DNA of 64,000 bases from a virus, in IMG/VR virus record IMGVR_UViG_3300025646_000028, positions 8,765-72,764 of that record; one strand, given 5' to 3'. The notes beneath the pieces were generated by a model, which was not told where the DNA came from, did no database searches, and saw nothing but the letters and a program-made list of their open reading frames with translations. Made by a program: the position numbers and the translations under genes. Shown piece by piece: positions 3,537 to 43,570 of this stretch (the first letter of the stretch is position 1; every line of letters starts with the position of its first letter).

Positions 3537-4440
3537 TGCAGACACACATGAGTATACTCATAACAATGAAAAGTATACAAGCGTAACTCAGCTGCTTAAA
3601 AAGTACAACCTATCGGTAGACTATGATGGGATACCAAAAGATGTATTAACTAAAGCAGCTAACCGTGGTAAAGCAACCCACGCAAGTTTAGAATCATATG
3701 TTAAAGGAGATCGAAGTGAGCTTAATATAACTAGCGAAGTAGATCTTTTACATAACTATGTAACTACACGTGGTATTGATTTAGCCACAGCACAATCCGA
3801 ACAACTTGTCTTTAATGATAAGTATAAGATAGCAGGTACTGTTGACTTTCAATATGTTGATGGTATTGATAAAGTTATTGCTGACTTCAAGACTACATCT
3901 ACTTTACATTTAGATGCAGTATCATGGCAGCTAAGTATCTATAACTATATCTTATCTGGTGGTGACGTAATGAACTATTACTTTAATAAACTTAAAGTGT
4001 TCCATTATACAACCAGTAAGTTATATGTTAAAGATATCTATCTTGTAGAGTTCGATCAAGTCGAAGCATTGCTTGAAGCAAATCTAAAAGATGAACCAAC
4101 ATTTAATTATGTTAAACCTAATAAAATTGTTGCTGGTTCAGATGAACAATTGATTGGTCAAGTGCTTGCAGAAATTGCATCACATAAAGAAATTGTTAGC
4201 CGTCTTCAAGATGAATTAGATTTGTTATTAGAAAAAGCTAAAGAACGTATGGTTCAATCAAATGATTATACATTTGCTAATGATGATTATCGATTGATAT
4301 ATGTACATCCTCAACAACGTACTACTTTAGATAGTAATAAAGTTAAAGAATATCTTGAACAACAAGGTCAAGATATTAAAGACTTTATGAAAGAATCTAC
4401 CACTAAAGATGGTATTAAAGCTGAACTTCGACGACGTTAA
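3517..4440 (+). CDS. PD-(D/E)xK (Cas4/YqaJ-like) exonuclease
   Basis: SVTQLL, RGKATH, IAGTVD, ADFKT, WQLSIY; C-terminal coiled coil. Confidence 0.85.
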   Translation: MNGMEFNADTHEYTHNNEKYTSVTQLLKKYNLSVDYDGIPKDVLTKAANRGKATHASLESYVKGDRSELNITSEVDLLHNYVTTRGIDLATAQSEQLVFNDKYKIAGTVDFQYVDGIDKVIADFKTTSTLHLDAVSWQLSIYNYILSGGDVMNYYFNKLKVFHYTTSKLYVKDIYLVEFDQVEALLEANLKDEPTFNYVKPNKIVAGSDEQLIGQVLAEIASHKEIVSRLQDELDLLLEKAKERMVQSNDYTFANDDYRLIYVHPQQRTTLDSNKVKEYLEQQGQDIKDFMKESTTKDGIKAELRRR

Positions 4441-4446
4441 AATAAC

Positions 4447-4477
4447 AGCGCTGGCATACCGCTATAAATAGTATGCC
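4447..4477 (+). promoter_or_regulatory. Putative H-type pseudoknot/hairpin just upstream of a Shine-Dalgarno
   Basis: AGCG/CGCT and GGCATAC/GTATGCC stems; AAGGAG follows. Confidence 0.4.
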
Positions 4478-4493
4478 TTAAAGGAGAACTAAC

Positions 4494-5402
4494 ATGGCCT
4501 TAATATTACAAGCCGCAACTAAAGTATTAAAACCACTTAAAGTTTTATCTTATGGTCCAACGTATAGTGGTAAAACATTATCTTCATTGTACTTAGCTGT
4601 AGGTTTAGTTATGAAAATTCGTAACTGCAGTGAAGCTGATGCATACAAACACATTGTTATGATTGACACTGAGTTTGGTCGTGGTGCTTTATACAATAAG
4701 ATTGGTTTATATAATTATCTTCGTATTGATCCACCGTATTATACAGAAAAATTAGTAGATATGATTTCTCAACTTAATGAAATGGACCAAGTTGATGTTA
4801 TTATTATTGACTCACTCACACATTTCTGGGTTAAAGAAGGTGGTATCTTAGATCAAAAAGCTGCCAAAGATAAACTTGGTGGTAACTCTTATACTAACTG
4901 GCAAGACTTTACTGCTAAGTTTAATAAGATGATTGATAGTATTCTTACTTCACCAAAGCATATCTTTACTACAGCACGTGCTAAAACTGATACCGCATTA
5001 GTAACAGGTGACAATGGTAAAGCTACACCAAAATCTTATGGTCTTAAACCTGAGTTGCGTGATAACGTAGAATATGATTTCGATATTGTATTTAACATTG
5101 ATAAGCAATCTCACAACCTTATCGTAGATAAAGGTGTACCAGGTCTAAAACCTGTGTATGAGATTGCAACCGTAGATACTGGTAAAGAAATCTATAGTCT
5201 ATTTAGCGCAGATGCTGTCATCCCTGCTCGTACTAAATCGGATATTGCTGATAGTATTCGTGCTGTAGCTAAAGCTAATAGTATGATTCCATTTGTTCAA
5301 CTAGAATTACGTGGTCGTAAACTGGAAGACTTAGAAGAATCTGATATGCTTAGTTTAGAAAAAGCTTTACTTGATAACGTCAAGAAAATGCAATCTAAAT
5401 AA
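4494..5402 (+). CDS. AAA_24 / Sak4-like ATPase (recombinase-like)
   Basis: Walker A GPTYSGKT, IDTEFG, Walker B IIIDSLTHFW, EYDFD; next to an exonuclease gene. Confidence 0.85.
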   Translation: MALILQAATKVLKPLKVLSYGPTYSGKTLSSLYLAVGLVMKIRNCSEADAYKHIVMIDTEFGRGALYNKIGLYNYLRIDPPYYTEKLVDMISQLNEMDQVDVIIIDSLTHFWVKEGGILDQKAAKDKLGGNSYTNWQDFTAKFNKMIDSILTSPKHIFTTARAKTDTALVTGDNGKATPKSYGLKPELRDNVEYDFDIVFNIDKQSHNLIVDKGVPGLKPVYEIATVDTGKEIYSLFSADAVIPARTKSDIADSIRAVAKANSMIPFVQLELRGRKLEDLEESDMLSLEKALLDNVKKMQSK

Positions 5403-5404
5403 TT

Positions 5405-6172
5405 ATGGCTAATATCAGTGATGCTTCTGGTGTCATTGATATCAAAGGTGCATGGACTGAAGATCAAATTAAATCACTTTCTTATGTTTTATTCTTTCAA
5501 AACAATTTTGGTGATTATGGTTTTCAGTTCATAAACTTTGATGCGGTGTACCAATCGCTTATTAAAGAACGTTCCGTACCTTTTAGTGGCACAGGTCGTT
5601 GGTCATTCACTACTAATTTATCTTCGTTTACTGAATGGACAGATCTAACAAAAGATAGTTTTGAATTAGTTGATAAAACTATACCATTACAACAACAGAT
5701 AAGTTATGCTCAATATTGCAAACATCGAATAAATACAATGACAGCTTTAACATCTAAAGATCGTAGTTTAGATATTGTGTTTGCTGATTATGAACCTGGT
5801 GTTAGTATGGCATATCAAGCAACAGGTAGTATTGTAGGTGTTATATCTTATGATAGTATAACTAAAGAAACTGATGCTAGATTTGAATACATAGAAAAAA
5901 GTGTAAAAGAATATGAATGTAATTTAAAATTTTTAACAGAATTTGTATTAGGTAATGACTTAGATAAATTGTGGAATGTTTGTTATTCTATTATTAGTAG
6001 ACATTACGGAGACCTTATAAAAATACATAAAGAAAATTCAATAGATATTTTAATAGAGTTTGTAATGAAGGATCCTGAATGGTATAACTTAAGGGATTCT
6101 GAATATGAAGAAGTACAATCTGTCCCGGAAGAAATCCAAAACTTCCTATCAAATATGGTGAAGGGAGGATAG
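5405..6172 (+). CDS. Hypothetical protein
   Basis: 255-aa ORF tightly packed in the operon. Confidence 0.75.
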   Translation: MANISDASGVIDIKGAWTEDQIKSLSYVLFFQNNFGDYGFQFINFDAVYQSLIKERSVPFSGTGRWSFTTNLSSFTEWTDLTKDSFELVDKTIPLQQQISYAQYCKHRINTMTALTSKDRSLDIVFADYEPGVSMAYQATGSIVGVISYDSITKETDARFEYIEKSVKEYECNLKFLTEFVLGNDLDKLWNVCYSIISRHYGDLIKIHKENSIDILIEFVMKDPEWYNLRDSEYEEVQSVPEEIQNFLSNMVKGG

Positions 6173-6436
6173 ATGAATGTCAAAGATTTAGTATCTAAGT
6201 TTTATTACGACGCTAGTAAACCTGTTGTATTTATTATTAATGATAAAAGCTACACTTATTATGAAGTAGTAGATAATCCTGTATTATTGAAAATGGAAAT
6301 TAATAAAATAGAAATACAAGGTAAAGTTTATGAATTAACAAGTGATGATGTTTTACAATATAACTCTCATGTTATACATGATTTTGTTATACCTGATAAC
6401 GCTCATTACTTTTTAATTAAAATTATTATTAAATGA
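6173..6436 (+). CDS. Hypothetical protein
   Basis: GGAGG RBS; abuts the upstream stop. Confidence 0.7.
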   Translation: MNVKDLVSKFYYDASKPVVFIINDKSYTYYEVVDNPVLLKMEINKIEIQGKVYELTSDDVLQYNSHVIHDFVIPDNAHYFLIKIIIK

Positions 6437-6450
6437 AAGGAGGAATAAGT

Positions 6451-6669
6451 ATGTATTCATATACATTTAATGGTATTACTTATACAGCTAACACAGTTCT
6501 TGAACTTCAAATGAAGTTAGAACAAGTTGGATGTACTGATGATATTATTGCATTCTTTAATCAAGAAGCTTTAGCATCTTTACAAGATGATGAAGATCTT
6601 GCTAATGCAGATATGCAAGAAGAAGTTGTAACAGACTTTGAAGATGATGGTTTAAATCAACTAAACTAA
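6451..6669 (+). CDS. Small acidic hypothetical protein
   Basis: AGGAGG RBS precedes ATG at 6451 (track start is 6433); very acidic C-terminus. Confidence 0.7.
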   Translation: MYSYTFNGITYTANTVLELQMKLEQVGCTDDIIAFFNQEALASLQDDEDLANADMQEEVVTDFEDDGLNQLN

Positions 6670-6762
6670 CTAAACAATTCTAGGGGGATTGTTTACTTAG
6701 GTCAACTATAATGCCCGTCTTATAGTTGGTGTATCCGAGGTATGGCTACCTGACGGGCTTTT
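6666..6762 (+). ncRNA. Structured element (hairpin plus pseudoknot) between convergent operons
   Basis: Stems TAAACAAT/ATTGTTTA, CAACTATAA/TTATAGTTG and AGGTA/TACCT; loop GCCCGTC pairs with GACGGGC; T-tract follows. Confidence 0.45.
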
Positions 6763-9700
6763 ATCCTATTACGTTTCTTGACTGTCTCCAACGAACATAT
6801 TGTCTCCATTGAATATCTTTAACTAATGAATAAGGATTTATTTTTGGTTTACGCATACGTCCATACTTATTAAACCAATCACGATAAATATTTTCGTACT
6901 TCGCGTATCTACCATTTCTACCGTATCTATATTGCCGTGGAGTATACTTACCATAATTGTTTATATCATAAGCAAAACCACGGAATGTTGTACCGATAGA
7001 AGCTGGACGTGTTTCTAATAACTCTCTAGCTACAGGAACTTGTGCTGCTTGTTGACGTAAGTTAGTTTGTAACGCCATGTCACTTACACCTGTAACGGTA
7101 TTAGCTAAACGTCCAACTAATCCTAATGAAGCTAACTGATTTAATGCTTCAAATACACTTCGTTTTTCTACTAATGTTTTAACACCACGAAGTATAGGAG
7201 ACATGCGACCTTCAAATGCTTCTTGTGTATTGTATAGAATATTCATTACATCAAGTGCACCGTTACCTAAACGTATACCAAAAGTAGGACTTAAAGGAAT
7301 CCAACCATTACGCATTTGATATTTAATATAATCATTATATTCTTTTTCTTCTTCATCAATATATTGACCGTACCAACCGTCAAGGAAGTCAGACATAAAT
7401 CTCCACCAACGAGGACTGTTTAAACGATGTATCCAGTTAGTTATTGAACGCACAGGAAAAGAGATAAATGGAATGTCAGCCATTAAACGTTGTTCTAATG
7501 GAGATCTTAGACCGTAATTAAACCAGCTTCGTAAAGATGCTAATACAGATTCATCAAATGATTTATTGTAAATCATTAAGTTGTATAAAAAGTTTGTAAC
7601 ACGCGCACCGTTTTCAATAAAGGTATTAATACGGTCATAACCATCAATTAATGATGCTGTTAAACCTCTGAACGGTCCGCCAAAACCTTTAGCTAACTTA
7701 CGGTCTTTACGCGCATCTGCAATCATCTTTTTAATTTCTTCATATGATTTTGAAGACAAATCATTTTCGTCATAACCTTTATAGTTTGCAAATACTTCTG
7801 GTAACAATTCAAAATTATCTTTACGCAAGTAGTCAGACGTAGCAGCAGTATTCATGAAAGCACTTAATTGTTTTAGTAATGTTTTCTTCCATTTGTTTTT
7901 ATCATCAAAAATAGCTTTGCCTAATTTAGTAAGTCCTTTACGAACTTTACCATTTTCATCTCTTGCATCTACGCGTAAACCTGCAACCCACTTGCCGTTA
8001 ATTTCTTGGTTGTCGTATAGTTCAATGAATTCACCGAAACGAATGTTACTAACAAACTTAGCTGCGTCATAAAGCACATTTGTATATTTATCAATATTCT
8101 TTATTGTTATTAAATTCATTTGTTTTAATAAACGTTTTACTATAGGTAAATAATATTTAATACGCGGGCTTTCATTTTCTTTAGTTGCCCCAATAGCAAC
8201 ATAACTTTCTAAAACTTCTTTCATTAAACCTAAACGAGATTCAATTAACTTTGGATTACGTACTTTACTTTTTAGTTCTTTAATAATATCTTCGTAGTGC
8301 AAACCAATATTAATAATACTTGCGGTGTGTTCGTCACTATACTTTTCATAGTAACTCATAAGTTCTAAAGAAGTCATCGTCATATGGATAAAGTCATTTG
8401 ACTCTACTGTTTTAGGAAGTATTTGTGCATTGCTAAACAACTGATACACTGTATCATTTAAGTTTCTAAATAAGAATGCCGCACTAAACTTAGAAATATT
8501 CTTAGATAACAACTGTAATTTATAAGCAAAGAGTTCGATACCTGCAGGTTTTCTACGGCTAGTGTAAGTAGTTTCCATTGCTTGTATCCATGTATTAAGA
8601 TCAACAAACCCTACAATAGGTACAGCACCAGTGCCATCATCTTTAACTGCGTTATAAAGAGTTCTTAATTCATCTATGCTATTAATCTTAATCTCTTTAT
8701 AAGTCGGAGTTAAAGCTCTGTTGTCTTTTAATACAACAGTCGGATCAATTTGATCATAGACTTTACCGTTGTATACAACCTTGCCACCTTCTTTTTGGTA
8801 TGCTTCTAATTCTTCTAACGTTTTAAACTTTAACGCTTTGATTTCTTTTTCAGTAAACTGTGTATACAATTGATCTTTACTGTCTTTTTTAGGATCAAAA
8901 CGTCTAATGTTGTCTACAATAGATTTATAAGCGCCTTCATCTTTATAAGGATCTTTAACAATTACTAAACGATAATCTTGTTGACGTGTGCGTAAAAACT
9001 CATACACAATTTTTAAACTTACGTCCAGGTTATTAGGGTTAATCATGTTTGTTAATAACGTAACATCATTAGCCATAGCTAATCTAGCTCTAACTTTAGA
9101 ACTATCAAGATCTTCTTGTGTTAAATAACGTGGTTTACCTACATTGCTGTCGCCTAAACCGTAGCCATCTACTGTACGCAACAGTAAAATTCCGCCACCT
9201 AAATTATTAATCAACGCATTTTCTAATGCTTTAGATCTTAACTCTTGTTTAGCTTCTTCAATTTGTCTATTTTCTTCTTCTAGTTTAGCGATAGGATCTT
9301 CATTATTTTCGTACCATTCTTTAATACGTTCTGTATTTAATAACGATTTTTCTTCAGCACTAAGTTTGACTTCTTCAGCTTTGACTGCTTTTTCTAAATC
9401 TTTTATTTCTAATTCAATAGCACGTTTACGATTTTGAAGTGCGTTAAGTTCACCTATACCATTCTTAATTTTATTTTGTAGACGTGCATTTTTTACACGT
9501 GGGTTTTGTAGCTTTAATTGCGCACTAGATTTAAGATTTAAATCTGCTTGTAGTTTCTTTATTTCTTTAATTCTAGCTATGACTTCTTCTTTTTGAATCA
9601 ATAATAATTCAATATCTGTTTTTAAATTACCAATAAACTCATTGACTTTTGTTGTCTCTGAATCGAATGTTGCGTATTGCAACTTGCTTGTTAAAGCGTT

Positions 9701-12700
9701 TGTAACTTTATTGTAGGTATCTTTACTTAACTCTTCTTGTGTTTTTGAAATAACTTCGTTGTTATTAGTACCAGCTGCACTTACAGCAATTTGTACTTCT
9801 TCCATAGATAAACCTTCATCACGAATTTCTTGTGAAGCATCATCTTCTGGAGAAATAAACACACGGTTACCTTCTTCATCTACAATAAACCAACCTTCAT
9901 CCATAGCATTAACGTTATTAAAGAAGTTAAAAAATAAATTGTTAGACTTGTAACGTTTATCAAAAGCTTGTTTAAAGTCAGGATTACGTAGAGCGTAAAA
10001 CAGTCGTAAAATATTACTCGCATTTTTTACGCTATCAATACTATTAAAGTTAATATTCTTTGCACCACTGTAACGTTCATTAACTACTTGCACAATAGAA
10101 AGACTGCTACGCATAAAACCTATTAGTTTATAGAAAGGTATGTTAAAGCCATTAAAGAAATTAATACTTTCTTCTAAGTCTTTTTTATTAATAGCATAGT
10201 CATTTGGGTTACTTAATGCTTTATTTAATTGACTGAGACGTTTGTAAAACAGAGTAGTTATTTCATCTGGCATGTATAAGTTTCCAAACACGTACAACTT
10301 CAAACGTTCTTTAATTAAGTTCTTAATCGCTGTTTTTGCACTTGCTTCATCATCATAACTTTCTTGCAAACGTATACGTGATCCAGGGTTTTCTTCATAG
10401 TATTCTTTATTTAAACTGGCAGATGTAATACGTTCTTCTTTTATATCAAGTCTTTCAGTAAAGTCTCGATCAGCGTTAATAGCTCTACCAAGTATAGCTT
10501 CTGTAGTGTCACTACCTAAAATAATATTACGCACACTTTTACGGGTTGTAATGTTATCTACTTTTCTAGTAAATCGAATATATCTTTCGTTAGAATTTGA
10601 ATCAATACCATCATGCTTAGCCATGCTAATTGTTTCTTGTATTAAATTAGACATGTTGTTATTTGCTACACGTTCAATAAAGTATTGATCTAAATAACCT
10701 TTTGTTAATTTCTGTAAATCAACCCTTCTTAAAAATTCTTCAGCGGCTTTACTACCTCGGAAATAATAAAACAATAATTCCTTTTTAAAGCTAGCACCTA
10801 ATTCTTCTCCAAGTGATTTGCTATTTCTAAAATTCTCTATGTAGTTTTTAATAACAGGTTCATTTTTTATTGAAGAGTTTTCTACAAATTCTAAATAGTC
10901 TTTAACGGTTATAGTTTCTCTATCCATAAAATTAGATAAATTTTCTAATTCAGATTCAGCATCCATCATTGTTTTAACAAGTCTTCTTAAGTCTTTTAAA
11001 ACATGTTCTGTATCACGTAAAAAATATTTAATATCAATTGCAGATTGTTCAGTCCAAATACGTTTAACTTCTTCAACAGTTAGCCCGTTTAAAATATTAT
11101 AAAGTTCTTCGTAGTTTACATTTTCTGCTTTTGCTTCGTCTGCTAGTGTCGCTAACAAACTACGTACAGTTACTTCACCTTCAGTATTAGTAGCTCCTAT
11201 AGCTTTCCAGAATATACCTTGTTTAGATTTATTAATGTGTTTGTATTCTGCAATAATTGAAGATGTAAATTGATCTTTACGTTTATTACCTGCGTAATTA
11301 ACACCGTTTTTAGATGCGCGAATACGGCCTGTTGTAGATTGTTCTAGTTTTTTAGACAACACTAACAACACTAAACGTTTATAGTATTTACGATAAGCTT
11401 GTTTATCTTCTTCAGTAACTCTATTAGTATTATTAAGAATGTCTTGTTCTTCTTGAGTAAAGTTATTAAGATATTCTTTCTTTAATTTTTCTGAAATAAT
11501 AATGTCTTCACCGTATTCAAAGCTGTTAAAGTTCTTTTCAATTGTATAAATTGTATCAATCTCATCTTTAAAAGTGTCGTAATAATCTTTAAGTTTATCA
11601 ACATTAAAGTAGTCTGATACTTTTTGAATGCTTGTATCTTCAACACTAGATACATCATTACCTTCATTGTTTATACGTACATGTGCGTTGACATATAACC
11701 TTAATGTATCAACATCATTAGTGTCTAATGGTTCTAAATTATTTTCTACACTTTTTGCTAGTTGGTTATATGTGTCTCCACTGATTAATCGGTACATTTC
11801 TACATTTAAATATTCACCTTCTTCTCCACGAATATCTTTATTTAAAGTATTTTTACCACGTTGATTACGTCCTACACTATAGCTAATTAATTTTGCGCCA
11901 CTCATAAAGTGTTGATCGTTTTCTACTTTATCTTTAGCAAAAAGTTCTCGATTAGCTTTTTCTAAGTACGATATTAAATTACCTTTTTTATCAATTTCTT
12001 CATCAATAGAGTAGTAGTTTAAATCGGTAGCTAATAGTTCTCGTAAAGGAGCATTATCTCCTTCAACATCAGAAAATTTTAATAAACCCATACCCATAGT
12101 ATCACCGTCGTTATCAGCACCCATCATGTTGTATGCGTATACGTTAACGTTAACTGCATATGACGTGCTAAAACCTATAGCTTTTAACACAGGGGTAGCT
12201 GCGTAATCTTGAACAGGTGAACGGACTGCTAAAACGTACGTGTATGTTTGGTTAAGTTGGTACCCATCTAATTTATTAGTACCACTTTCTACTGCTAAAT
12301 GTAACGCACCGTTTTCTTCAGCTAAAATACCACGCGAGTTTAAAAACTCTATACGTTGTTCTATGTTTTCAAAACCTAAAATAGTGTCAATATATTCTTT
12401 AGATTTTTTAGCATTTAAAGGTTCAGTTTTAATTAAAGTATTACCTTCTTTGCTATCTTTAACTACAATAGCGTCCCAAGCATCTTTAGGTAAAGTTATT
12501 TCTCCAGCATCAAGTGTAACGTCCACAAGATATTGAGCACGCACACCGTCTATACGTTTAAATCTTGATTGGTAGTAAGCACTATTCTTACCACTATACA
12601 TTTTCTTTAATGCATTGCTTTCAGTATTTTTTACAATACGATCAATGTTTTTATTGTAACCTTCCTTAGGACCACTTGTAGTGTTTCTCAAGTACAAGTA

Positions 12701-15700
12701 GTTTAAATATTGCATACCTTGTTCTCTTACATATTCATGTATTTCTTTCTTTTGGTATGCTTCAGTTAATTTAATTTGTAATTCTTCTAAACGTTCTACT
12801 GTGTTTACTTCTTCTTCGTCTTCTAATCCTGTTGCGTTTTTAATTACAGTCTTAAAACCTAAAGAACGTATATTAGATAACAGATTTAAGTTATCATTGT
12901 TAGGACCAAAAACTTTATTAAAGTTATCTAACCCAATTTTATTTATTATAGGTATAGAAACAGTAGGCGAAACATAAGTACCTTTAATTGGATTGTTATT
13001 ACTGTCAACAACGTTACGAATAAGTTTACCTGCTGTGTTAAATTTAGTTTGTGTAGCCATAGCTTGCGCACTATTTTCATGATCAGCGTAAACGTATGCC
13101 AAACCACGAACATATGTAGTTGCAGTTAAATCAGTTTTAATTAGTCTACGTTCATGTACTTTATTCATGTCGTAGTCTTCTGTAATAAATTGATCTGATT
13201 TTGTTTTAATATACGCAGGCGTAATAATTGCCGGGACATCTTTTTCTGCGTCTTCTTCTTTAAAGTCACGTAAAATTAAAACGTTATACAATTCAGTATC
13301 TTTTGTAGTGTCAGTAATCAAAGATTTAAATTCTTCATCATTACTTAATTTATCTTTTATTTCTTTTGAAAGACCTTCTAACAATTCATAAGAATCAAAG
13401 CTACTATCCACAAGTAAAACATTGTCTTCTTTATTTAATAAAGGTCCAAATGTTTTTCTTAAGTAAGGATCTATTGCTTTAAAAAAGCGTAAGGTTCTTG
13501 CGGGGATTAATGAGCTTCCATCTTTTTTAGTTTCATTAAGTAAATAAGCACGTATATAATTAAATAACATTTCACCGTAAATACCAGCTGTACCACGGCT
13601 ATTAACTGAGTTAGCACTTGCTACAAATAATGCGCCATATGTTTTATATAACCCTTGAATAGGTCTGACAGCTCCTTTAAACCCGGAGTGTAATCCTAAC
13701 CATGTCTTATTACCATTACCATATTCAGTTGAATAGTAGAAATCTGCATCAACAGCAATTTCATCTAATGGTATACGTGGATCGTTTGCAAAAGCAATAG
13801 GTACAGTAAACCCAAATTGATGTACTTCTGTATCATCTTTATAACTCTTATATAAAGATTTACTCATTACATTAGGCATAAAGATTTGTGTATTAGCACT
13901 CTTAGTTAATCGCACAAAGTTATTTATTACTTCTTTGTTTTTAATATACTTACCAGGATTACTTAAAAACGTCGTTAATAATTTTTTACCCGGAGCAACT
14001 TTATCAGGAATGTCTCCGTAAATATTATTTAAAAATTTAAGGCTAGTATACTTAGCTAAAAGATGCTTAGCACTTAACATAGTACGGATTGCGTTTGTAC
14101 TTAATAAGAACGGGAAGTTTAAAGCATAACGTGTTTTATATTTAAGTACTGCACCTGCACTACCTTCAGAGTTTAATTGAAGATCAATATTGTTTTCTTT
14201 TAAAAATGCATCATCAAAAGACTCAATGTTATAATCATATGTATAATCTGCATTTATTTGATTAACAATAGAGCCCGGTTCAAGTGCTTTATAACGCGAC
14301 GTTAAACGGTTATATATACCTATATAAATAGTTTTTAAATCACGTTCTGTTAGTTGTCTTTGCTTTTGATACAATGCAACTTCTGCAAAGAACTGATTAC
14401 GAATCATTTCAGATATGTTTAGTACACGTAAGTATTTTGAGTTAGCTGCAAATTTTTCATGAGTTAAAGTTTTTTGATAGATTGCTTCGTTTGCTTCTTC
14501 TGCTTCGGTTATTTTTGAAGCTTCTGTTTTAGAATTAACACGTCTAAAGTTATCTTTATTTTTAATTAAAAATTTAATAAGTACATCAGAAGCGGCTTTA
14601 CCACTATCAACACCTTTAGCATAGAACACTTCATCTCTTCTAACATTGGGTAAAATGCTGTATTTAGCCTTGCCATCTTTAGTCCAGTAAAATTTCTTTT
14701 CATCTAAAAGATTTTCTAATTCTTTAAATGTAAAGTCAGAGTCAAATTTAGCATCTTCAGAATTAAAATAAACATTTATATTTTTTTCTAATGTTTGAAA
14801 GCCTGCAGTAGAACCACCGTCATATTTTAAATGAGCAGGAATATATCCGTAGCGTAATTTAATTTCAATTCTATTTTTCTTTGCGTTAAAACTTGCAGTA
14901 CTAACAAGATTATATTCGTCATCTGAGACACTATATAAATAAGTGTTATCAATTGCATTGTCTTGTCGTATAGCTTTAGAAAGTACAGTATTGTGTACAG
15001 TTCGTATAGCTAAAATATCATTACCTTTTTCTGGATCATCATAATGTACTTTAAGTCCTAAGCGTTTTAACGTGGCGCTTTCAAAAACTTCTTTAAGATC
15101 TAGTGTACTACTAGCTATGCTGTCAAACTGTTGATCATTCATACGGTTTGAAGGTTTTTCTCCTGTAATTAAACTGTAAATAGTTTCATTACTTAGATTC
15201 TCTATTTTAGTTTCTAGTCCAGTAATACTTTCCATTACGTTAGAGTACGTTAAAAGTAAAACATTGAGATCAGTTTTACCTGGTAAGTCTGACTCAACAT
15301 AATTTTCCAACCAAGCTTTGGCTTGTAGTAAACCGTTTTTGCGATCATTAAGGTACTCATTAAACACAACAAGTTTTGTGCTTGTTGTTTCTTTAATAAG
15401 ATCTTCAAAACTAATTTGACTTAGCGAAAGATTTTCTTCATAGTTTTCTAATAAGTTAAGTACTTTAGTAAATGCTGCTGTGTACTTTTGATAGTCTTCT
15501 TGGTTTTCAGAATCTGTAATTACACCATACATTTTACGTAAGGATATTAAATCGATAGGTTTGTTTTCAAATAAGATATTGTTGTTTGCGATACTAATCC
15601 CTTTAAAGGTTTTAATCTTTAATAAGTTTGTAAGAGCTTCAACTAACTTAGTGTATGTTTGTTTTAAGTAGACTTTTAATTCATCTTGATAATCCTTCAG

Positions 15701-18700
15701 TATGTTTTTTAAGAATGTTTCAACAACAGCGTCTTCTAATTTGCCATCTTCTCTAAGTACTGTTTGCTTAGAAAGAGCTTTAAGTTCTTCATTGATAGCT
15801 TTTAAAGCGTCTTCTTTAGTTATAGATTTATTAAGCACGTCTAATATACGTGTGTCTACACTTCCTTCTAAAAATACTTTATAGTCTGTAATTTCTTTAC
15901 CACTACGTATAGCCGCAGCTAAACGAATAATATTGCTGAGTTTTAATTTTAAATCTCTATCAGCCATTTCTTTTTGAGTTTCTAATAAACCCAACTCTTT
16001 AGTAGCTGTAGTACTAGATCTTATTTCTTTAACAGAATTTAATGCAATACTTACAGTTTGACCATAACCAGATGTAGTTAATTTATCTATTTTTTGTGCA
16101 GAAGAAATAATTTGTTTTACAATTTCATCATCACTTATAACTTTTGCTGCAACTTCTTCTCGAAGTCTACTAATAGTTTCTTTGTGTTTTCTTATTGTTT
16201 CTTTTTTCTTTTCAATTTCTTTTTGCTTTTGTAGTACAATTTCTTCAGAAGTTAATCCTGTTTTTAAAACTTCAGCTAGTGTACTATTAGCAGCTTGTAA
16301 AGCATCAAGTATTTCAATACTTTCTTTTATATTTAACTCAACATCTTTGTCGTAGAGTTTAACACCGGCAAGCTTTATAGCACGTTCTTTAAGTTCGCTG
16401 CGTACACCTACACCTGATGTAGCTCCGTATTTAATTACAGCCCCATTTAAAGTTTCATTGTAGTTTTTCTCTACACCTTTTATTAATTTATCTACATATT
16501 CAATAATAATTTTTTCAACAGCAGGTGTCTTATTTTCTAAAGTAATACCTTCCATAAACCGTAAAACTAAATCATTTTTAATTTCAGTTTTAATAGCGTC
16601 TGTTACTTTTTTATCAAAGTATTTGGTTAATTGATCTCTAAGATATTTAATTGCGCCTGTGCTAACATCAAAAATTTGGTTTTTAATATCATCGTTAAGA
16701 ATATAACCTGTTTGTTCAGAAGCTTTTTTAATAGCTTGATTTATTTTAAGCGCAGTAATTTTGTTATTAATACGATCTAAATCTTCTTTAATTCTATCTA
16801 GTTCTTGCTTAGTAATAAATTCTTTTTTAGTTTCAATTGTTTTAATAAGACGATCACTTGCTTCTTGAAGTTCTTTAATATACTCTGTAGTTATTTCATC
16901 CGCGTCTAGCTCAGTCTTATCTATTTTATTAAAAATAGTTTCAAGACTATTTTCTTCAGATAAATTACGATAGTATTCGTTAACAATTAAATTATCACCG
17001 ATACGACTAATAAAGTTTTTAATAATATTAAAATCAAAACGGAAACCGTTGTGTGCAACAATGTCTACATTTGCATCTCCAACTTTTTGTATAAAAGTAT
17101 TAATAAAGTTGTCGTTATTTTTAACTTGTTTTACACGCGCAATTAACTCGTCCATTTTTATTTTAGCTTTAACTTCAAATTCTTCAGGAGATAAGTCTTC
17201 TTTTTCCCATTGCTTTTTCCATATGCGTTTTTGTTGCTCATAAAACTTAAGCATGTTTTCTTTATAACTTCCGTCATCATTAACTCCGTCATAAAATAAA
17301 CCACTATTAATGTATACATCATTAATAATTAACTGTTTATCTTTTACAGTAATCATTGTTATTTGATAAGGGGTGTCCTCACCGTTGTAACGGTACGTTT
17401 CTAAGTCAATAACAATAAAGTTTTTTGACGCAGGTTTTTGATGTATATAATTTAATAATGTAATTAAAGAGTCAACAACAGAGTTGTGTAATGCGTAGTC
17501 TCCCCTACTCTTTATAAATGTTTTTAAAAATTCAATGTCTTGACCAGGAAATTTTTCTTGTACAATTTTTAAAACAATATTAATAACATCTATTTCAGCT
17601 GCATCTTTTTTAATTCTAGCTTTATAGTAATGTTTAAATAAGTCTAAGTTACTTAATTTATCTCCAGCCACTTCTAGTTCTTTATTATACGCAGCTTGAC
17701 GATCAGCTTTTGTTTTTTCTAAAGCTTCTTTTTTAATTTCTAAATCAGCTTTTAAAGTTTCAATGCCTTCTCTTCGTTTAGGTAAATCGTTTAAAGCTTG
17801 TTTAAAATCATTAACATTTTTAAGTTTATCTAAAAATTGTTTTTTATAACGTTTATAGTTTTTTATTTCAAAGTTGTCTTTACTGTTTGTAACAAATCGG
17901 ATTAATGAAGCCACTGTTTGATCATCCATATTATCAATAGCTTCACCTTCAATGTCTTTGTAAAGGTTGCTAAATAGTTTTTTAGCGTGATCAAGATCAG
18001 AAACAGTAGGAACTTTCCCTTTACGATCTAATAAAGTTTTTTCTAAACCAATACTTCCTATAGTTTTTTCTGCTTTATTAATATACTCTACAAATTTGTT
18101 TGAAAAATATTCTACACTTATATTAAATTTATTAACTAAAGCGTTGTTAACGTTTGCTAATAATGCTTGTGCAAAACGTAGTTTATCATCTGCTAAATCA
18201 CTAAAATCAAGTTCAACTTGTTTACTACCAAAAGATTTACTAATTGCGTCATAGTTATTAGGGTGTTTAATAAAATTAAAAATTAAATTAAATGCTGTAA
18301 GAGGTGTGATATCTTTAAACTGTTCTCTTGTTTCATTCTCTATTCTTGCAGCTTCAGCATCTGTAAGCTCTCGTTTTAAGTCACTACTACGTTTATTAAT
18401 TTTTAATTCGTTGAAAACAGTAAAGTATAAATTTAGTTTAAATTCTTCTTCACCTTCTAATTTAGGAAGATCAACAGCTTCAGGTATATCAACGATTCTG
18501 CGGTTTGCTAAAGTATTAGCGTGGTTTCTAAGTATACTTATTTCATTTTGAACAGCTTTTGTTAATACATCTAAACTAATAAGTTTATCGTTTTTAACTA
18601 CACCTAAATCTTTTTTACCGGCTATACCGAATTGAACATTAAAGTCACGGATAAAACCGTATAAAACTTTTAAATATGAAAGTTGTTTGTTGTAAAGCGC

Positions 18701-34895: not shown

Positions 34896-37800
34896 CTATT
34901 TTAAGTTATACAAACGGTATCCAATCGTTACCGTTGGTCCGGTGTGTCGTATATAAAAAGTAGTACCGCTATAATAATATTGGAAAGTAATTGTCAATGC
35001 AGACGAACCGTTGAACCAGGTGGCGCGGTAATATCTAGCAGACGTGCTTAAACTATAACTATTTTCCATAGTAACCATAAACTTTGCTATTTGATAAACA
35101 CCTGTAGTTCCATCTTGTTGTGCTTCAATATAAAAGTTTCTCATGCCACTTGTAAATGCAATACTTCCATAGTTATTTACAGATTGTGATGTAGACCCTA
35201 CTTCTTCTAGTGGTTCAACCCATACAGGTGCGCCGGATCCAGAACTTCTTAAGGTTTGGTAAGCACTACCAGCACTTGTAGGTGCATAGATTGTAGTAGC
35301 TCTTGATTGTGAAGATCCATTAACAGCAACAAGACCATAATAAATATCTCGTTCAGTAGGCAAGCTAGTGCCAGTACCAATCGCTGCGTTGCTTGTGCTA
35401 TCAATAACACCATAAGCAGCCGCTGCACCGCTGTCTGTAATGTTTGCTAATGTATGCGTGTGAGATGAAGCTGCAAATGCAGAGGCATGTTGTCCGTCTA
35501 ATAAATCAGCGTCTAAACCAGAAGATGCGCCGTCATTACCTGCGTCCCAAATTTTATATGTAGAAGTAAAATACCCACGGTAAAGATCTTGTACTTGACC
35601 TCTTAAATAAGGCCCATTATAAGTTTGAGCTGTATTAAAAGTAAGATTTCCACTGGTCGTTCCAGAAGATAAAGCAATTGAGTTTGACGTAGATAAACTA
35701 ACATTACCTGTTAATGTTGGATTTGTAAACATGGTTGCTTTAGACTCATTTGTTACATTACCAAGACCTACCATGGATGCAGTTACACCTGATACAGTAC
35801 CTGTAAATGTAGGATTACTAAACATTGTAGCTTTAGATTCGTTCGTTACATTACCAAGACCTACCATGGATGCAGTTACACCGGAAACAGTTCCTGTAAA
35901 GGTAGGACTAGTAAACATAGTTGCTTTGGATTCGTTTGTAACATTGCCTAGTCCTACATCAGTAGCAGTTGGTTTATTACCTGTGTGATAAATTGGATAA
36001 TATGTATCAGTAATATAATCTCTAACAGCACTTAACTTATCATCATAGTCAGCAATACCCCAAGCACCGGAAGTATCATTACCACCACTAGAAGGATTCG
36101 CAATAAATCTTGGCGCATATATATCACTACTAAATGTTTTAACACCAGCAACGGTTTGGTTACCTGTAAGTTTAACCACAGCATTATCATTTGCTTTTGC
36201 ATTTAAAGCATTTGTAACAGTAGAAGCAAAGTTTGCATCATCGCCTAACGCAGCAGCAAGTTCATCAAGCGTATCTAATGCACCAGGTGCAGCGTTGATT
36301 AAGTTTGCAACAGCCGTTGATACAAATGCAGTCGTTGCAATCTGTGTTGTATTTGTTCCAGCTGTAGCAGTAGGTGCGGTAGGAGTACCTGTTAATGCTG
36401 GACTTGCAATAGGTGCATAGTATGATCCATGTTGACCATCAAGCAAATCTGCATCTAATCCTGAACCACTACCATCGCTCCCACTATGCCACACTTCTTG
36501 AAGACTACTCCAAGTGTTATTGGCGCCATGTGAGTTTTTAAAAAACAGTCTATTATCTTCTCCTGTGCTGGAATAACCTATAAGTTGCCATACAGCGTAA
36601 CCATCTGCCCAACCTTTCATTGTTAAAGCAGACCACCAAGCACCATTTATGTCATCAGTAAATTCTGCACTAACTCTACCGTCATCATAATCGTTTGGCA
36701 GTTTTAAAGCGGCTCGAGTATCTTCAATATCTAAATGATATGCTTCAGCCGCAGTTCCACTTGTTGAAAGTTTACCATCAAGACTTGTTTGTAAGTTTGT
36801 TACATCACTAATCGCGTGCGTGTGACCTGCTACAGAAACACGATTGTTTAATTCGTAAATATAACCTGTGGTATTGTCAATACGAGTTGTAGGATTGCTG
36901 TAACTTTCAATATCACCTGCTACTGCAAGTGATTTATTCATATAGAACGAAGCCCTATCCGTTTCCATATGGAACCACGCTCCGTTTTTTGGTCCTAAAT
37001 CACCATACCCATTAGATGTAGTAATACGAACACTATCATTTCCACCTTCTGAAATTTTGGTTGAACTATCGTTAATATGGATTTCTCCATCAACTTCTAC
37101 GTTACCTGCAACGTGTAGTTTTTGTGATGGTGTTGTTTCTCCAATCCCAACTTTTCCGTCTTCGGTAATACGCATTCTTTCTGCCGGTGTCGGTGCTGTA
37201 GTTACATCTGTTGTGGAAAATCTTAATTCACTACTACCATCATTAGAAGCTGTTCTTATACCTTCAATTTTTGCATTATAATTTGTTTCTGTTGCCGAAG
37301 CCGATGTTCCAAATATAATACCTGCACCACCACCAAGAGTGCTTGTTCCTGTTGTGTCCATAAAAATATGGTAAGGTGATGATGTCATTGATTGTGAAAG
37401 AGTTAAAAACGAACTCGGTGTCGTAGTTCCAATACCAACTCGATTGTCAGCATCAATAACCATTTGTGTTCCGTCTTTGTTTCTAAATTGTAAACCGTCA
37501 TCTCCAAATGCACCAATGCCACCAATAGTTCCATTGTTATTTTCAAATTGAACGATTGAACCAGAGCCTGTTGTTCCTCTATCTAATATAAAAGAAGAAA
37601 ATGAACTACTTTCAATGCGTAAGTCACCAGTCATCGTCCCGCCACTTAAAGGTAAGTAATTAGCAAAGCGTGCGTCACTATTATTAATGATTGTAAATTC
37701 CCAAGTATGAACTGAAGAAGGATAGCTATAACCTGTTAGTAATAACATATCACCCGCTTCTAAATTAATTGGAACTGTATTATCTCCTTCATCTCCAGGT

Positions 37801-38855
37801 GCTTTAATTGTAAAAGCATGTCCAGACAAAGTATTTCCCGCGACAAGCGTCATGTCTTCTGAAGCAACCCAACCTCTTCCTATTTCTTCTTCGGGTTCGC
37901 TTGAAGAAATACCAGCACTACCTCCATAAAGCCACCCTTGCGTAATGCCATACATGATATTGAACATGTTATTAAGAGTAGAATTATTTAAAGTTCCACT
38001 AATTCTAATACCACCGCGAATCCACGATCCTAATTGTGAAGAAGGAATAAAACCTGCAGCATCAAGCGTAGCTACACCGTTTGCTGCACCTTTTTGTGTT
38101 AAAGGAATTTTAGCATCAAGTGTTGTTTGTAAGTTTGTTACGTCACTGATTGCGTGATCATGAGACGCTGCAGCGTAACTTCCAGCTGCTTGTGCACCAA
38201 TTTCTGCCAAACTCCAAGACACATTACCCGAACCATTAACTGATTTACCAGTGCTTCCAATTGTAATTGTTCTTGCTGTTGTCCAAGTATCTGCGTTAGG
38301 GTGATAGTTATCTGTAAATACCCTAACCCAACCACTCCAAGATGTATAGTAAGTTCTTACATACACTTTTGGATCCGTGCTATAAGTTGTATATGTTTGT
38401 GTTACAAGTCCTGCTGACTTTTGAACAAGCAAACTACCCGCTTCTCCACTTGGATAGTTGTTACCTGTTGTATCTGCGTTTGCTGTTTGATAGTAAAACC
38501 CTGCTGTTGTAATGTCATTTAAGTTTTGTGCTGATGTCAGTTCAATAGCAGTGTTGGGTGAGTAAGCAGATGCAATAGCAACAGTTGTTGCTCCAACAGA
38601 AATACCTGTGCCACCACCTACAGTAAGTGTAACATCGCCAGAAGTGCCACCACCTGTTAAACCATTTCCCGCTGTTACACCTGTGATGTCACCTGTCGCA
38701 GAACTTGGTACAGCCCATGTCCCATCTCCACGAAGAAAAGTGGTACCGCTAGGAGTACCTGTAGCAACAATGCTTGATACATTTACTTCAGGATAGTCTT
38801 GTACCCACGCACCATTACCGCTATTAGCAGTCGGATCCCATTTTTTAACTTTCAT
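34896..38855 (-). CDS. Tail fibre / receptor-binding protein
   Basis: GDITGVTAGNGLTGGG, VGIGTTTP, ERMRI..GKVGIG, SGLDADLLDG twice, APGALDTLDELAAALGDD, knob-like domain. Confidence 0.9.
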   Translation of the reverse strand: MKVKKWDPTANSGNGAWVQDYPEVNVSSIVATGTPSGTTFLRGDGTWAVPSSATGDITGVTAGNGLTGGGTSGDVTLTVGGGTGISVGATTVAIASAYSPNTAIELTSAQNLNDITTAGFYYQTANADTTGNNYPSGEAGSLLVQKSAGLVTQTYTTYSTDPKVYVRTYYTSWSGWVRVFTDNYHPNADTWTTARTITIGSTGKSVNGSGNVSWSLAEIGAQAAGSYAAASHDHAISDVTNLQTTLDAKIPLTQKGAANGVATLDAAGFIPSSQLGSWIRGGIRISGTLNNSTLNNMFNIMYGITQGWLYGGSAGISSSEPEEEIGRGWVASEDMTLVAGNTLSGHAFTIKAPGDEGDNTVPINLEAGDMLLLTGYSYPSSVHTWEFTIINNSDARFANYLPLSGGTMTGDLRIESSSFSSFILDRGTTGSGSIVQFENNNGTIGGIGAFGDDGLQFRNKDGTQMVIDADNRVGIGTTTPSSFLTLSQSMTSSPYHIFMDTTGTSTLGGGAGIIFGTSASATETNYNAKIEGIRTASNDGSSELRFSTTDVTTAPTPAERMRITEDGKVGIGETTPSQKLHVAGNVEVDGEIHINDSSTKISEGGNDSVRITTSNGYGDLGPKNGAWFHMETDRASFYMNKSLAVAGDIESYSNPTTRIDNTTGYIYELNNRVSVAGHTHAISDVTNLQTSLDGKLSTSGTAAEAYHLDIEDTRAALKLPNDYDDGRVSAEFTDDINGAWWSALTMKGWADGYAVWQLIGYSSTGEDNRLFFKNSHGANNTWSSLQEVWHSGSDGSGSGLDADLLDGQHGSYYAPIASPALTGTPTAPTATAGTNTTQIATTAFVSTAVANLINAAPGALDTLDELAAALGDDANFASTVTNALNAKANDNAVVKLTGNQTVAGVKTFSSDIYAPRFIANPSSGGNDTSGAWGIADYDDKLSAVRDYITDTYYPIYHTGNKPTATDVGLGNVTNESKATMFTSPTFTGTVSGVTASMVGLGNVTNESKATMFSNPTFTGTVSGVTASMVGLGNVTNESKATMFTNPTLTGNVSLSTSNSIALSSGTTSGNLTFNTAQTYNGPYLRGQVQDLYRGYFTSTYKIWDAGNDGASSGLDADLLDGQHASAFAASSHTHTLANITDSGAAAAYGVIDSTSNAAIGTGTSLPTERDIYYGLVAVNGSSQSRATTIYAPTSAGSAYQTLRSSGSGAPVWVEPLEEVGSTSQSVNNYGSIAFTSGMRNFYIEAQQDGTTGVYQIAKFMVTMENSYSLSTSARYYRATWFNGSSALTITFQYYYSGTTFYIRHTGPTVTIGYRLYNLK
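35705..35965 (-). repeat. 93-bp (31-aa) coding tandem repeat, about 2.7 copies
   Basis: VGLGNVTNESKATMF three times; DNA ccaagacctaccatggatgcagttacacc at 35761 and 35854. Confidence 0.85.
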
Positions 38856-38875: not shown

Positions 38876-40027
38876 TTAATTAAGATCAAACCAAATGTTG
38901 TTTGCGACTTGATAAGACGTTGAAGGAGTAGTTGTACCAGAAATAAATGGTTGTGTCATTTTTAAACCATCTGCTTCTTGTGTTAAACCAACACCAGCAG
39001 CAACACTAAAAGTTGTTCCTGATAAACCAATACCATTCCCGTCTGTGTAGGTTGTATCTGTAACTGTTTCAGTACCAGATGAAATAGCAGTAATGTGTCC
39101 AAATTCATCTAATGTAATACCTTGAATGTATGTACGACCACTGTTAGAAACAGAGGCTTGTGAAGATGTATCAGCGTGTTTAAACGTAATAACATCACTT
39201 GCTTGTTGAATTGTTAAACCAGCTGTATTACTAGTTCCGGTTGTACCAACAGCTAACGTAATATCGTCTGTACCACTGCCAGATCCTCCAGCAGTTAAAC
39301 GAATAAACGCTTCATCAGATTCTTGGCTAGCTTCTGTACTGATTGAATACGTAACAGGAAGCGCCCATGTAGCATCTCCGCGTAAAAAATAACTTTGTTG
39401 ACCAGCTGCTGCGCCAGGAACAATACCCGCTGTACCTGCTGCATTACTTGTAGCACCTGTAAACACTTCAAATGAGTTGTTAATAACAGAAGCTGTAAAC
39501 AACCAAGGAGTACTCTCAGTTCCATTACCTTCAACTTTTTCAATTACGAACCAATCCCCTACTTCAAGTGTACCTGAAGAAGCATTGGCAGTTGTATTTG
39601 TACCACCGTCTTGAGGTTTAAATTGTAATGTAGCGTATTCGCCATCGCCTGGATCACCTTCAGCAATAAAGTTTTCTGGAATACCAGTTAAAGCACTAAT
39701 GGTTCCCGCAGAAGTTATAACCCAGTAATACCCAACAACACTTCTTCCTGCAGCATCGGCTTCATATAATTTTGTAATTAAGTCTGAAGCAAGAACACCT
39801 CTTGATTGGGCTGAACCAATAGTACCAATTGTACTACCTGCAAAAAATAGACTGTCAAATACACTGTCAGGTAAATATGCAGGTAAAATTTTAGGTGAAC
39901 TTGTTCCACCACCAAAAATACTGACAAGAGTTCCAGCTCCTACATTAACTACAATGTCTGCAGCGTTTACTTTAGGGCTTTGTGCAACCCATTGGCTAGT
40001 ACCGCCATCCCATTTTTTAATAATCAT
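38876..40027 (-). CDS. Tail fibre-associated structural protein
   Basis: G/T/S-rich; GAAAGQQSYFLRGDATW, ITLDEFGHIT, GNGIGLSGTTFS fibre motifs. Confidence 0.75.
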   Translation of the reverse strand: MIIKKWDGGTSQWVAQSPKVNAADIVVNVGAGTLVSIFGGGTSSPKILPAYLPDSVFDSLFFAGSTIGTIGSAQSRGVLASDLITKLYEADAAGRSVVGYYWVITSAGTISALTGIPENFIAEGDPGDGEYATLQFKPQDGGTNTTANASSGTLEVGDWFVIEKVEGNGTESTPWLFTASVINNSFEVFTGATSNAAGTAGIVPGAAAGQQSYFLRGDATWALPVTYSISTEASQESDEAFIRLTAGGSGSGTDDITLAVGTTGTSNTAGLTIQQASDVITFKHADTSSQASVSNSGRTYIQGITLDEFGHITAISSGTETVTDTTYTDGNGIGLSGTTFSVAAGVGLTQEADGLKMTQPFISGTTTPSTSYQVANNIWFDLN

Positions 40028-43166: not shown

Positions 43167-43570
43167 ACGACTTCTCCTTTGTTTTCAAGTTCTAATAACT
43201 TAAGTTCATACTCATTAATAAGATCACGTATACGTTTTTCAAGTGAAAAAATGTATTCTTCAATATCTGGACGAATTGGTTTTGTACCAGTTATCTGATA
43301 TTTATTATACGCTAAATTAGATTGATAAACATGAATAGGTGTATTATTGTCATCAAATAATTCCACTTTAATATTTACAGTAGGTGTATTAATGTCAGGC
43401 ATTTCAATAAAAGTACTTTGTTCCTTAAACTGTTTACCATTAATAGTAAGTGTAGGATGTAAGTGCGAAGTGTTAGTTTCAAATTCATACTCTAAATAAG
43501 TATGATTAATTAATTCAGACACTTTCATCTGAACTATTTCAACTTTACCGTTAGTTAATTTTAACTTCAT
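43163..43570 (-). CDS. Hypothetical protein
   Basis: ATGA-coupled on both sides; GGAG RBS. Confidence 0.7.
   Translation of the reverse strand: MKLKLTNGKVEIVQMKVSELINHTYLEYEFETNTSHLHPTLTINGKQFKEQSTFIEMPDINTPTVNIKVELFDDNNTPIHVYQSNLAYNKYQITGTKPIRPDIEEYIFSLEKRIRDLINEYELKLLELENKGEVV

Follow-up and report, generated by a model that had tools for sequence, protein, structure and literature searches.

The DNA considered here, hereafter the window, is a stretch of 64,000 nucleotides corresponding to bases 8765-72764 of the 72,764-bp linear virus record IMGVR_UViG_3300025646_000028 (IMG/VR), the completeness of which was estimated at 79% by CheckV. Its minus strand carries a giant open reading frame (ORF) encoding a protein of 7,903 amino acids. 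An initial annotation, made from the letters alone, had proposed that a single-chain RNA polymerase (RNAP) of the two-barrel type, combining a β-like and a β′-like part, lies within this giant protein, and the proposal is supported by the conservation of the motifs, the folds predicted for both halves and the interface predicted between them. As judged from these models and alignments, residues ~5440-6700 correspond with high confidence to the core of a two-barrel RNAP with intact catalytic residues. The features on which this assignment is based are the following, with positions in the window, strand and residues of the giant protein.

6761-30472, minus strand: giant ORF, 7,903 amino acids (translation table 11), last gene of the structural block
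10373-14155, minus strand, residues 5440-6700: predicted RNA-polymerase module, β-like half followed by β′-like half
13058-14125, minus strand, residues 5450-5805: β-like half including a predicted double-psi β-barrel (fold matches of model 1)
14063-14119, minus strand, residues 5452-5470: NFPFLLSTNAIRTMLSAKH, β-like motif
minus strand, residues 5553-5561: FGFTVPIAF, β-like motif
minus strand, residues 5569-5574: LDEIAV, β-like motif
13673-13714, minus strand, residues 5587-5600: GNKTWLGLHSGFKG, β-type basic loop with invariant K5589 and K5599
minus strand, residues 5619-5627: SANSVNSRG, β-like motif
minus strand, residues 5789-5798: RGLAYVYADH, β-like motif
10373-12625, minus strand, residues 5950-6700: β′-like half (fold matches of model 2)
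12536-12559, minus strand, residues 5972-5979: KRIDGVRA, start of the β′ barrel, colinear with E. coli KRVDYSGRS (R5978 and, just beyond it, Q5980 invariant)
minus strand, residues 5991-5996: EITLPK, β′-like motif
minus strand, residues 6080-6086: VLAVRSP, β′-like motif
12206-12223, minus strand, residues 6084-6089: RSPVQD, counterpart of the β′ NRAP motif (R6084, P6086 and Q6088 invariant)
12101-12121, minus strand, residues 6118-6124: GADNDGD, presumed Mg-binding Asp triad D6120/D6122/D6124
11264-11413, minus strand, residues 6354-6403: candidate bridge helix of 50 residues (DSSP of model 2, H405-454), with invariant R6383, K6388, G6395, R6398 and K6399
10538-10672, minus strand, residues 6601-6645: candidate trigger loop, helix-loop-helix (DSSP of model 2, H652-671 and H678-696), with K6619/H6620 at the tip
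minus strand, residues 6612-6622: QETISMAKHDG, motif of the candidate trigger loop

Order and Conservation of the Polymerase Motifs

All eleven motif strings of the initial annotation occur in the 7,903-residue ORF in the order given there, and their coordinates are exact for the basic loop and the Asp triad, whereas the first motif, placed at ~14064-14122, is found at 14063-14119. The order was said to be that of the cellular enzymes, and it is indeed colinear with E. coli rpoB followed by rpoC, as read from the motif positions in NC_000913.3: the counterparts succeed one another at rpoB 676, 813, 1063, 1104 and 1231, and at rpoC 345, 366, 424 and 458. Spacings within the β′-like half are similar as well, with 36 residues between R6084 and D6120 (35 between R425 and D460 of E. 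coli) and 22 residues between K5972 and L5994 (23 between K345 and L368).

The giant protein belongs to a family representing the largest kind of phage protein met in these searches. A word-index search retrieved 11 relatives of 5,689-7,998 amino acids, with which it shares 27-54% identity in the region 5400-6700. When 1.84 billion representatives were searched with a profile, 40 clusters were obtained at E ≤ 1e-3, half of them with 6,661-7,998 amino acids and half with 58-2,662, and nothing beyond the giant-protein family itself at that threshold. The family comprises at least 40 clusters at 50% identity, every complete member measuring 6,661-7,998 amino acids. The short members, which may be either fragments or stand-alone forms, lie on contigs 6.7-11.5 kb long, those of P0013, P0014 and P0024 measuring 7.1-9.1 kb, and three short members share 90% clusters with giants of 5,872, 7,596 and 7,889 amino acids. 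IMG/VR contains six related loci, the contigs of which measure 56-82 kb.

Conservation was assessed over 1,200 positions in an alignment of those 27 stored relatives that exceed 5,000 amino acids, the 20 shorter fragment rows being left aside. These full-length relatives show 22-54% identity, and only 46 of the 1,200 positions are invariant; these coincide with the polymerase motifs. They include K5589, G5597, K5599, G5600, R5626 and D5797 in the β half, R5978, Q5980, R6084, P6086, Q6088 and the uninterrupted run D6120, N6121, D6122, G6123 and D6124 in the β′ half, and R6383, K6388, G6395, R6398, K6399, K6619 and H6620 further downstream. The DxDGD-type metal loop (D6120-N-D-G-D6124) is thus kept in 27/27 relatives, and the fragment P0014, which reads DTDGD, retains the three Asp. 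Conservation of these motif positions in homologues, a point on which the proposal had been declared refutable, holds throughout the full-length family. Expressed as identity to the first sequence, conservation peaks at residues 5401-5600 (0.61) and 6001-6200 (0.53), compared to 0.29-0.45 over most of the protein, and only the last ~300 residues are more conserved than these two peaks. Since the Asp triad, both lysines, the RxP arginine and the K-H pair remain invariant down to ~22% identity, purifying selection on catalysis is indicated.

Predicted Structure of the Two Halves

The β′-like half was modelled from 29 rows over residues 5950-6700 (model 2), with a predicted local distance difference test score (pLDDT) of 87.2 and a predicted template modelling score (pTM) of 0.79. 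Foldseek returned 134 PDB matches at E ≤ 1e-3, the best 50 of which are all largest subunits of RNAPs; one entry bears the title of an influenza cap-snatching complex, and its 1,440-residue chain was taken as Rpb1. In the VIA search of 48,161 chains, largest RNAP subunits occupy ranks 1 to 13 (Z 9.6-12.7), headed by human Pol I (7ob9_A; Z 12.7, root-mean-square deviation (rmsd) 4.5, 225 aligned residues), in which residues 7 to 727 of the model are aligned with residues 418 to 1682 of the chain. The aligned ranges reach as far as the C-terminal regions of Rpb1 and A190. Locally, in 4bbs_A, Rpb1 342 to 528 aligns to residues 22 to 229 of the model (rmsd 2.2, 110 residues, Z 12.4). Generic double-psi β-barrel (DPBB) domains come after the largest subunits, matching residues 25 to 205 of the model with Z 8.5-9.5, and gp96 of phage P23-45 (8h2m_A) stands at rank 17 (Z 9.1, rmsd 5.2, 186 aligned residues). 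Among viral models in BFVD, giant-virus RPB1 leads (E 2.1e-6), crAss-like proteins appear from rank 26 onwards and the phi14:2 protein is found at rank 41 (E 1.1e-2, probability 0.20). Taken as predictions, these fold matches identify a double-psi barrel of the β′ type.

Two elements downstream of this barrel are candidates for parts known from cellular enzymes. The 50-residue helix 6354-6403 may correspond to the bridge helix. The segment QETISMAKHDG, which had been advanced with some reserve as the trigger loop, falls in model 2 within a helix-loop-helix carrying the invariant K6619 and H6620 at its tip, which is in keeping with a candidate assignment as trigger loop.

The β-like half was analysed in a model of residues 5440-6639 built from 9 sequences (model 1), in which pLDDT ranges from 52 to 87 across the lysine-bearing blocks of the β barrel. 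In an exhaustive VIA search, nine of 48,161 chains reached Z ≥ 8, and all nine are second-largest RNAP subunits (Z 8.1-10.4), namely those of vaccinia, Pol IV, African swine fever virus, Pol I, AR9, Pol III, plastid, Xanthomonas and PhiKZ, matched within residues 11 to 366 of the model; the best is 6rfl_B (Z 10.4, rmsd 5.3, 210 aligned residues). After these nine, scores fall to generic double-psi barrels at Z 5.8-6.6. A second search, among 306 chains, gave five with Z ≥ 8, all of them β-type. The prediction that the β half contains a double-psi β-barrel of the second-largest-subunit type is accordingly supported by these matches and by the two lysines K5589 and K5599, conserved in 27/27 relatives, at a moderate confidence of the model.

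The packing of the two halves was predicted by folding residues 5440-5859 and 5950-6419 as separate chains, in three runs accompanied by three controls, and was judged by the interaction score ipSAE and the interface residues. The runs gave ipSAE values of 0.73, 0.70 and 0.24 (median 0.70), compared to 0.00 for the best of the three controls; the runs agreed in 25% or more of the contacts, and the partner pLDDT was at least 64. The mark used for packing is reached by 58 of 80 solved complexes and by 2 of 110 mismatched pairs, and its being passed here may stem from likeness to solved RNAPs. The confident interface comprises residues 5599-5601, 5623-5630, 5971-5978, 6081-6085 and 6120-6123, so that the Asp loop, K5599 and R5626 would be held in one interface, in agreement with the paired barrels that the initial annotation had made a condition of its reading. 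The two barrels are thus predicted to face each other across a single active centre.

Results Weighing Against the Assignment

Several results count against the identification of a polymerase and deserve to be considered together. No sequence method linked residues 5440-6700 to any known family. Five pieces of the giant protein gave no RNAP family in Pfam (the best row, MCM6_C with E 8.3e-4, lies under its cut-off) and no match at all in PHROGs. Against PDB sequences, the best E values were 0.8 (phmmer, single protein) and 1.7 (9-row profile), both with unrelated proteins. The families RNA_pol_Rpb2_6 (PF00562) and RNA_pol_Rpb1_2 (PF00623), against which a comparison had been recommended from the outset, gave 0 matches at E ≤ 10 on the phage genome, whereas the control search matched in 14/14 genomes; the module consequently falls outside the Pfam definitions of β and β′, even though β and β′ are its nearest folds. 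Nine members of the family alignment, searched in Pfam at E ≤ 10, yielded 12 families, each hit by a single member, and 0 RNAP families. When the same 9-member alignment was compared by hhalign with the E. coli sequences, the probability was 0.3 for rpoC and 0.2 for rpoB.

The structural side has its own reservations. Model 1 is poor as a whole, with a pLDDT of 64.3 and values below 50 at the most conserved motifs, and Foldseek found no match for it at E ≤ 1e-3. The global template modelling scores of the β′ matches are low (0.15-0.22), which means that the β′ half shares only a core with the RNAP subunits. K5589 is absent from the confident interface residues. Finally, sigma-70-like sites number 33 in the first 8.8 kb, compared to 40.2 ± 7.2 in shuffled sequences; they are not rarer than expected, and the early arm may accordingly be transcribed by the host enzyme.

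Relationship to Known Polymerases

The phage polymerases that travel in the virion and have been studied experimentally fall into three groups, those of N4-like phages, the crAss-like gp66 and the P23-45 gp96. The closest structural relatives found for the giant protein lie among the multisubunit enzymes, which comprise the cellular, giant-virus and poxvirus subunits β/Rpb2 and β′/Rpb1 together with the split forms found in the jumbo phages AR9 and PhiKZ. They display the same two barrels in the rpoB-rpoC order, share colinear motifs with the giant protein (two Lys, RxP, and DxDGD with Gly at the fourth place) and provide the best fold matches for both the β half (Z 8.1-10.4) and the β′ half (Z 9.6-12.7). 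They differ in consisting of two or more subunits, whereas the module described here is part of one chain inside a protein of 7,903 amino acids. The gap between LDEIAV and the lysine loop amounts to 13 residues in the giant protein and to ~245 in E. coli, and no clamp, flap or sigma-binding parts are recognisable in the giant-protein polymerase, unlike in the multisubunit enzymes.

The gp66 protein of Cellulophaga phage phi14:2 is described in bioRxiv 10.1101/2020.03.07.982082 as a virion-borne, rifampicin-resistant enzyme which transcribes the early genes; according to the same source it has 2,180 amino acids, a DFDID motif without Gly, a connector of ~140 residues between the barrels and QDE-1 as closest relative, and its structure is given in PMC10770324 as PDB 6VR4. 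Like the giant protein, gp66 is a single-chain two-barrel RNAP within a large phage protein of otherwise unknown domains. The giant protein differs by its DNDGD motif, by ~340 residues between the barrels and by having cellular RNAPs as its closest folds among the matches listed, and no sequence similarity was found either in PHROGs (five pieces) or by tblastn of the giant protein against 50,697 phage records, where it had no match. The comparison with gp66 made in the initial annotation is thus apt for the function, while by VIA and BFVD ranks the fold looks nearer to cellular and giant-virus RNAPs. None of gp66, QDE-1, YonO or PolD occurs among the PDB chains listed for model 1 or model 2 (50 shown for each PDB search by Foldseek or VIA).

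According to PMC10770324, gp96 of Thermus phage P23-45 is a virion RNAP fused to a tape measure protein of 5,002 amino acids in a long-tailed phage, with the polymerase at the N-terminus, and has a paralogue, gp64. The giant protein resembles gp96 in the fusion of a polymerase into a giant, here presumably virion-borne, protein and in a DFDGD-type motif; the role proposed for gp96 in that source, a coupling of transcription to DNA entry, is also similar to that proposed here. In contrast, the polymerase lies at residues 5440-6700 of 7,903 rather than at the N-terminus, no tape-measure family was matched by Pfam or PHROGs in the five pieces, and the nearest cultured relatives are podophages. 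In the VIA search, gp96 comes after both the cellular RNAPs and the generic barrels.

The polymerase of coliphage N4 belongs to the T7 type of single-subunit enzymes, which has an unrelated fold, and no T7-type fold or Pfam family was found in the Pfam scan of the five pieces or among the structure matches listed for model 2. N4 gp50, a polymerase of ~3,500 amino acids that travels in the capsid of a podophage and initiates transcription once expelled into the host (PMC13434306), can nevertheless be regarded as a functional analogue of the role ascribed to the giant protein.

Two-barrel RNAPs are divided in PMC10770324 into cellular RNAPs with their fused derivatives, on the one hand, and a clade of phage, plasmid and QDE-1 enzymes, on the other hand. 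By fold ranks only, the giant-protein family looks nearer to the former. Single-chain polymerases of the virion type being already known from gp66 and gp96, the module represents a new family which is a member of neither. No description of a phage protein of ~7,900 amino acids with a polymerase was found in open-access papers and bioRxiv, and the family might be among the 23 RNAP families aligned in PMC10770324.

Other Regions of the Giant Protein

Outside the polymerase, the following regions of the giant protein can be distinguished.

29450-29701, minus strand, residues 258-283 and 317-341: two hydrophobic Gly/Ala-rich segments (Kyte-Doolittle scan), with the putative role considered below
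16973-17515, minus strand, residues ~4320-4500: DEDD/DnaQ-like exonuclease motifs, N-terminal to the polymerase in the same protein
15497-16177, minus strand, residues 4766-4992: sub-threshold Pfam Intein_splicing row (E 0.0012, 19.2 bits, cut-off 35.8)
6764-7675, minus strand, residues 7600-7903: C-terminal ~300 residues, the most conserved part of the giant protein (identity 0.68)

The protein contains no Cys in its 7,903 residues, whereas the replication proteins of the window carry 4 Cys each; 16 of the 27 full-length relatives are likewise Cys-free and 4 of the 27 have 18-28 Cys. The two N-terminal Gly/Ala-rich segments are its sole hydrophobic segments by the Kyte-Doolittle scale. Over residues 185-269, a toxin translocation domain of Pfam is matched below its cut-off (E 0.016, 15.9 bits, cut-off 27).

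In the exonuclease-like block, the motif strings VIDLETY... and AHNGFRFDF are present, and D4356, E4358, H4474 and D4480 are invariant in a 12-row alignment. The nearest Atlas neighbour, a viral RNase_T cluster (0.91), may be taken as a lead only; the block has no Pfam match, and the third Exo motif was not identified. The Atlas neighbours of the C-terminal part (0.97) are stand-alone viral hypothetical proteins of 350-400 amino acids, and one of the clusters has Pfam LPD38 in 10% of its members. Because these neighbours exist as separate proteins, the giant protein may be a fusion of modules that also occur on their own.

Genome Layout and Relatives of the Virus

The giant ORF closes a minus-strand block of structural genes, the other members of which are listed in the order of transcription.

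54962-56839, minus strand: large terminase, first gene of the structural block
52940-54679, minus strand: portal, after the terminase
minus strand, between portal and tail fibre: several unassigned proteins
34896-38855, minus strand: tail fibre, 1,319 amino acids
30944-32740, minus strand: major head protein, 598 amino acids (match to PHROG 1357, 'major head protein')

Among the proteins of this block, those of 1,333 and 383 amino acids (43567-47568 and 38876-40027, minus strand) belong to no Pfam or PHROG family, and a neighbour of 419 amino acids (47558-48817, minus strand) bears a BspA-type leucine-rich repeat. The plus strand of the left arm encodes a primase-like protein, an SNF2-type helicase, a family A DNA polymerase, an exonuclease and a Sak4-like protein. 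No second RNAP was recognised among the scanned ORFs of the 72.8-kb record.

The capsid had been thought to be of the N4 gp56 type, a suggestion which could not be confirmed: besides its PHROG 1357 match, the head protein has tblastn matches only to the capsid genes of the Paenibacillus podophages API480 and SV21 and to one more phage record. Its C-terminus shows a weak match to the carbohydrate-binding CBM_5_12 domain (E 1.3e-4, under the cut-off). The closest cultured terminase and capsid genes are those of API480 and SV21, with 31% and 26% identity, which lends weak support to the Bacillota host that had been supposed. The protein of 1,631 amino acids ending the structural module of API480 has no similarity to the giant protein (best E 0.20). 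A search for relatives of the giant protein in one genome of each of 185,579 prokaryote species produced 56 pattern matches, 0 of them confirmed, and gave neither a prophage copy nor a host.

Outside the window, the plus-strand early arm starts with three tandem copies of ATATACTAC and further copies of TATACTAC (L004 (G000) 52-145; L005 (G001) 1144-1224). Of 24 plus-strand RTATACT sites in the 72.8 kb, 8 lie within the first 2 kb, and a relative sharing ~53% protein identity has retained the array. It could consist of promoters for the polymerase, iterons or host -10 boxes. The TATACT-type motif, although enriched at the left end, is not put forward as an early phage promoter, because it matches the host -10 box at 5 of 6 positions and one copy lies within a sigma-70-like site.

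Proposed Function and Alternative Explanations

The joint explanation which we consider the best, and reasonably probable, is that the module forms the core of a single-chain two-barrel DNA-dependent RNAP that is packaged in the virion, ejected and used for the transcription of the first genes. The fold, the way the halves pack and the conservation of the catalytic residues are shown in silico, whereas the activity of the enzyme, its template, its packaging and the timing of its action are what we infer beyond these. The enzyme would be built from a β-type double-psi barrel with two invariant lysines and, ~340 residues further on, a β′-type barrel with a DNDGD metal loop, followed by a bridge-like helix and a trigger-loop-like hairpin in the order of rpoB-rpoC, and the packed halves would bring the Asp loop and basic residues into one cleft. 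The giant protein would be packaged in the virion and ejected together with the phage DNA, and the polymerase would then transcribe the first phage genes, in the plus-strand arm, independently of the host enzyme. In this way, which is also that of N4 gp50, gp66 and gp96, the phage probably brings a transcription enzyme of its own into the host.

Delivery by the virion is suggested mainly by the position of the gene, which closes the structural operon after the major head protein gene, and also by the lack of Cys, the N-terminal hydrophobic segments and the fact that the record has no second recognised polymerase. The module could, however, be a genuine two-barrel RNAP that is made late and works in the producing cell, e.g., as a scaffold for late transcription or genome processing, or of which only a processed fragment is active. 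P23-45 indeed possesses, beside gp96, a non-virion two-barrel RNAP, gp64 (PMC10770324), and a polymerase situated so deep in the chain would require the threading or refolding of a very long virion protein. This explanation is nevertheless rather unlikely, as the giant gene ends the head and tail operon, the protein is Cys-free with N-terminal hydrophobic segments, and the late synthesis of the sole recognised polymerase fits a packaging for the next round, as in N4, gp66 and gp96.

It appears quite improbable that the two barrels serve another chemistry, whether that of an RNA-dependent RNA polymerase akin to QDE-1, of a primase-like enzyme or of a DNA polymerase resembling PolD. QDE-1 and its kin also have double-psi barrels with a DxDxD loop, as reported in bioRxiv 10.1101/2020.03.07.982082, and PolD likewise shares such barrels according to PMC7281927; moreover, the DEDD exonuclease-like block preceding the polymerase is of a sort typical of DNA polymerases. 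Yet every top row for both halves is a subunit of a DNA-dependent RNAP, no QDE-1 or PolD chain stands among the matches listed (50 per search), and a family A DNA polymerase and a primase are encoded separately in the genome. That the module is an inactive relic kept as a structural building block of an ejection protein is very improbable, for although the catalytic loop of gp66 adopts in the crystal a conformation incompatible with catalysis (bioRxiv 10.1101/2020.03.07.982082), so that odd states do exist, the Asp triad, the two lysines, the K-H pair and the arginine of RxP are unchanged in 27 relatives down to ~22% identity.

Returning to the virion-delivered polymerase, a much bolder extension, which we regard as doubtful, would make of this single Cys-free chain, which with its ~7,900 residues takes up a third of the genome, a complete machine for DNA delivery and first expression. 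In such a machine, the N-terminal helices might insert into the membrane and form or anchor a conduit, and the DEDD nuclease might act on nucleic-acid ends. The β-β′ polymerase might draw the genome into the cell through transcription from the conserved TATACTAC array with which the early arm begins. In the same doubtful scheme, the family might have branched off deeply and independently as a single-chain relative of the cellular enzyme, its lineage lying closer to cellular RNAPs than to the group of gp66, QDE-1 and YonO.

Significance

The polymerase core of the giant-protein family is invisible to sequence searches, and by the fold matches found it resembles the cellular β/β′ pair more than other single-chain phage enzymes. 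An active enzyme would provide a minimal, single-chain and sigma-free model of the cellular catalytic core, and it would show that annotations of uncultured phages as having no RNA polymerase gene can be wrong. It would also bear on the question whether the fused two-barrel enzymes originated repeatedly from cellular RNAPs or are preserved older forms.

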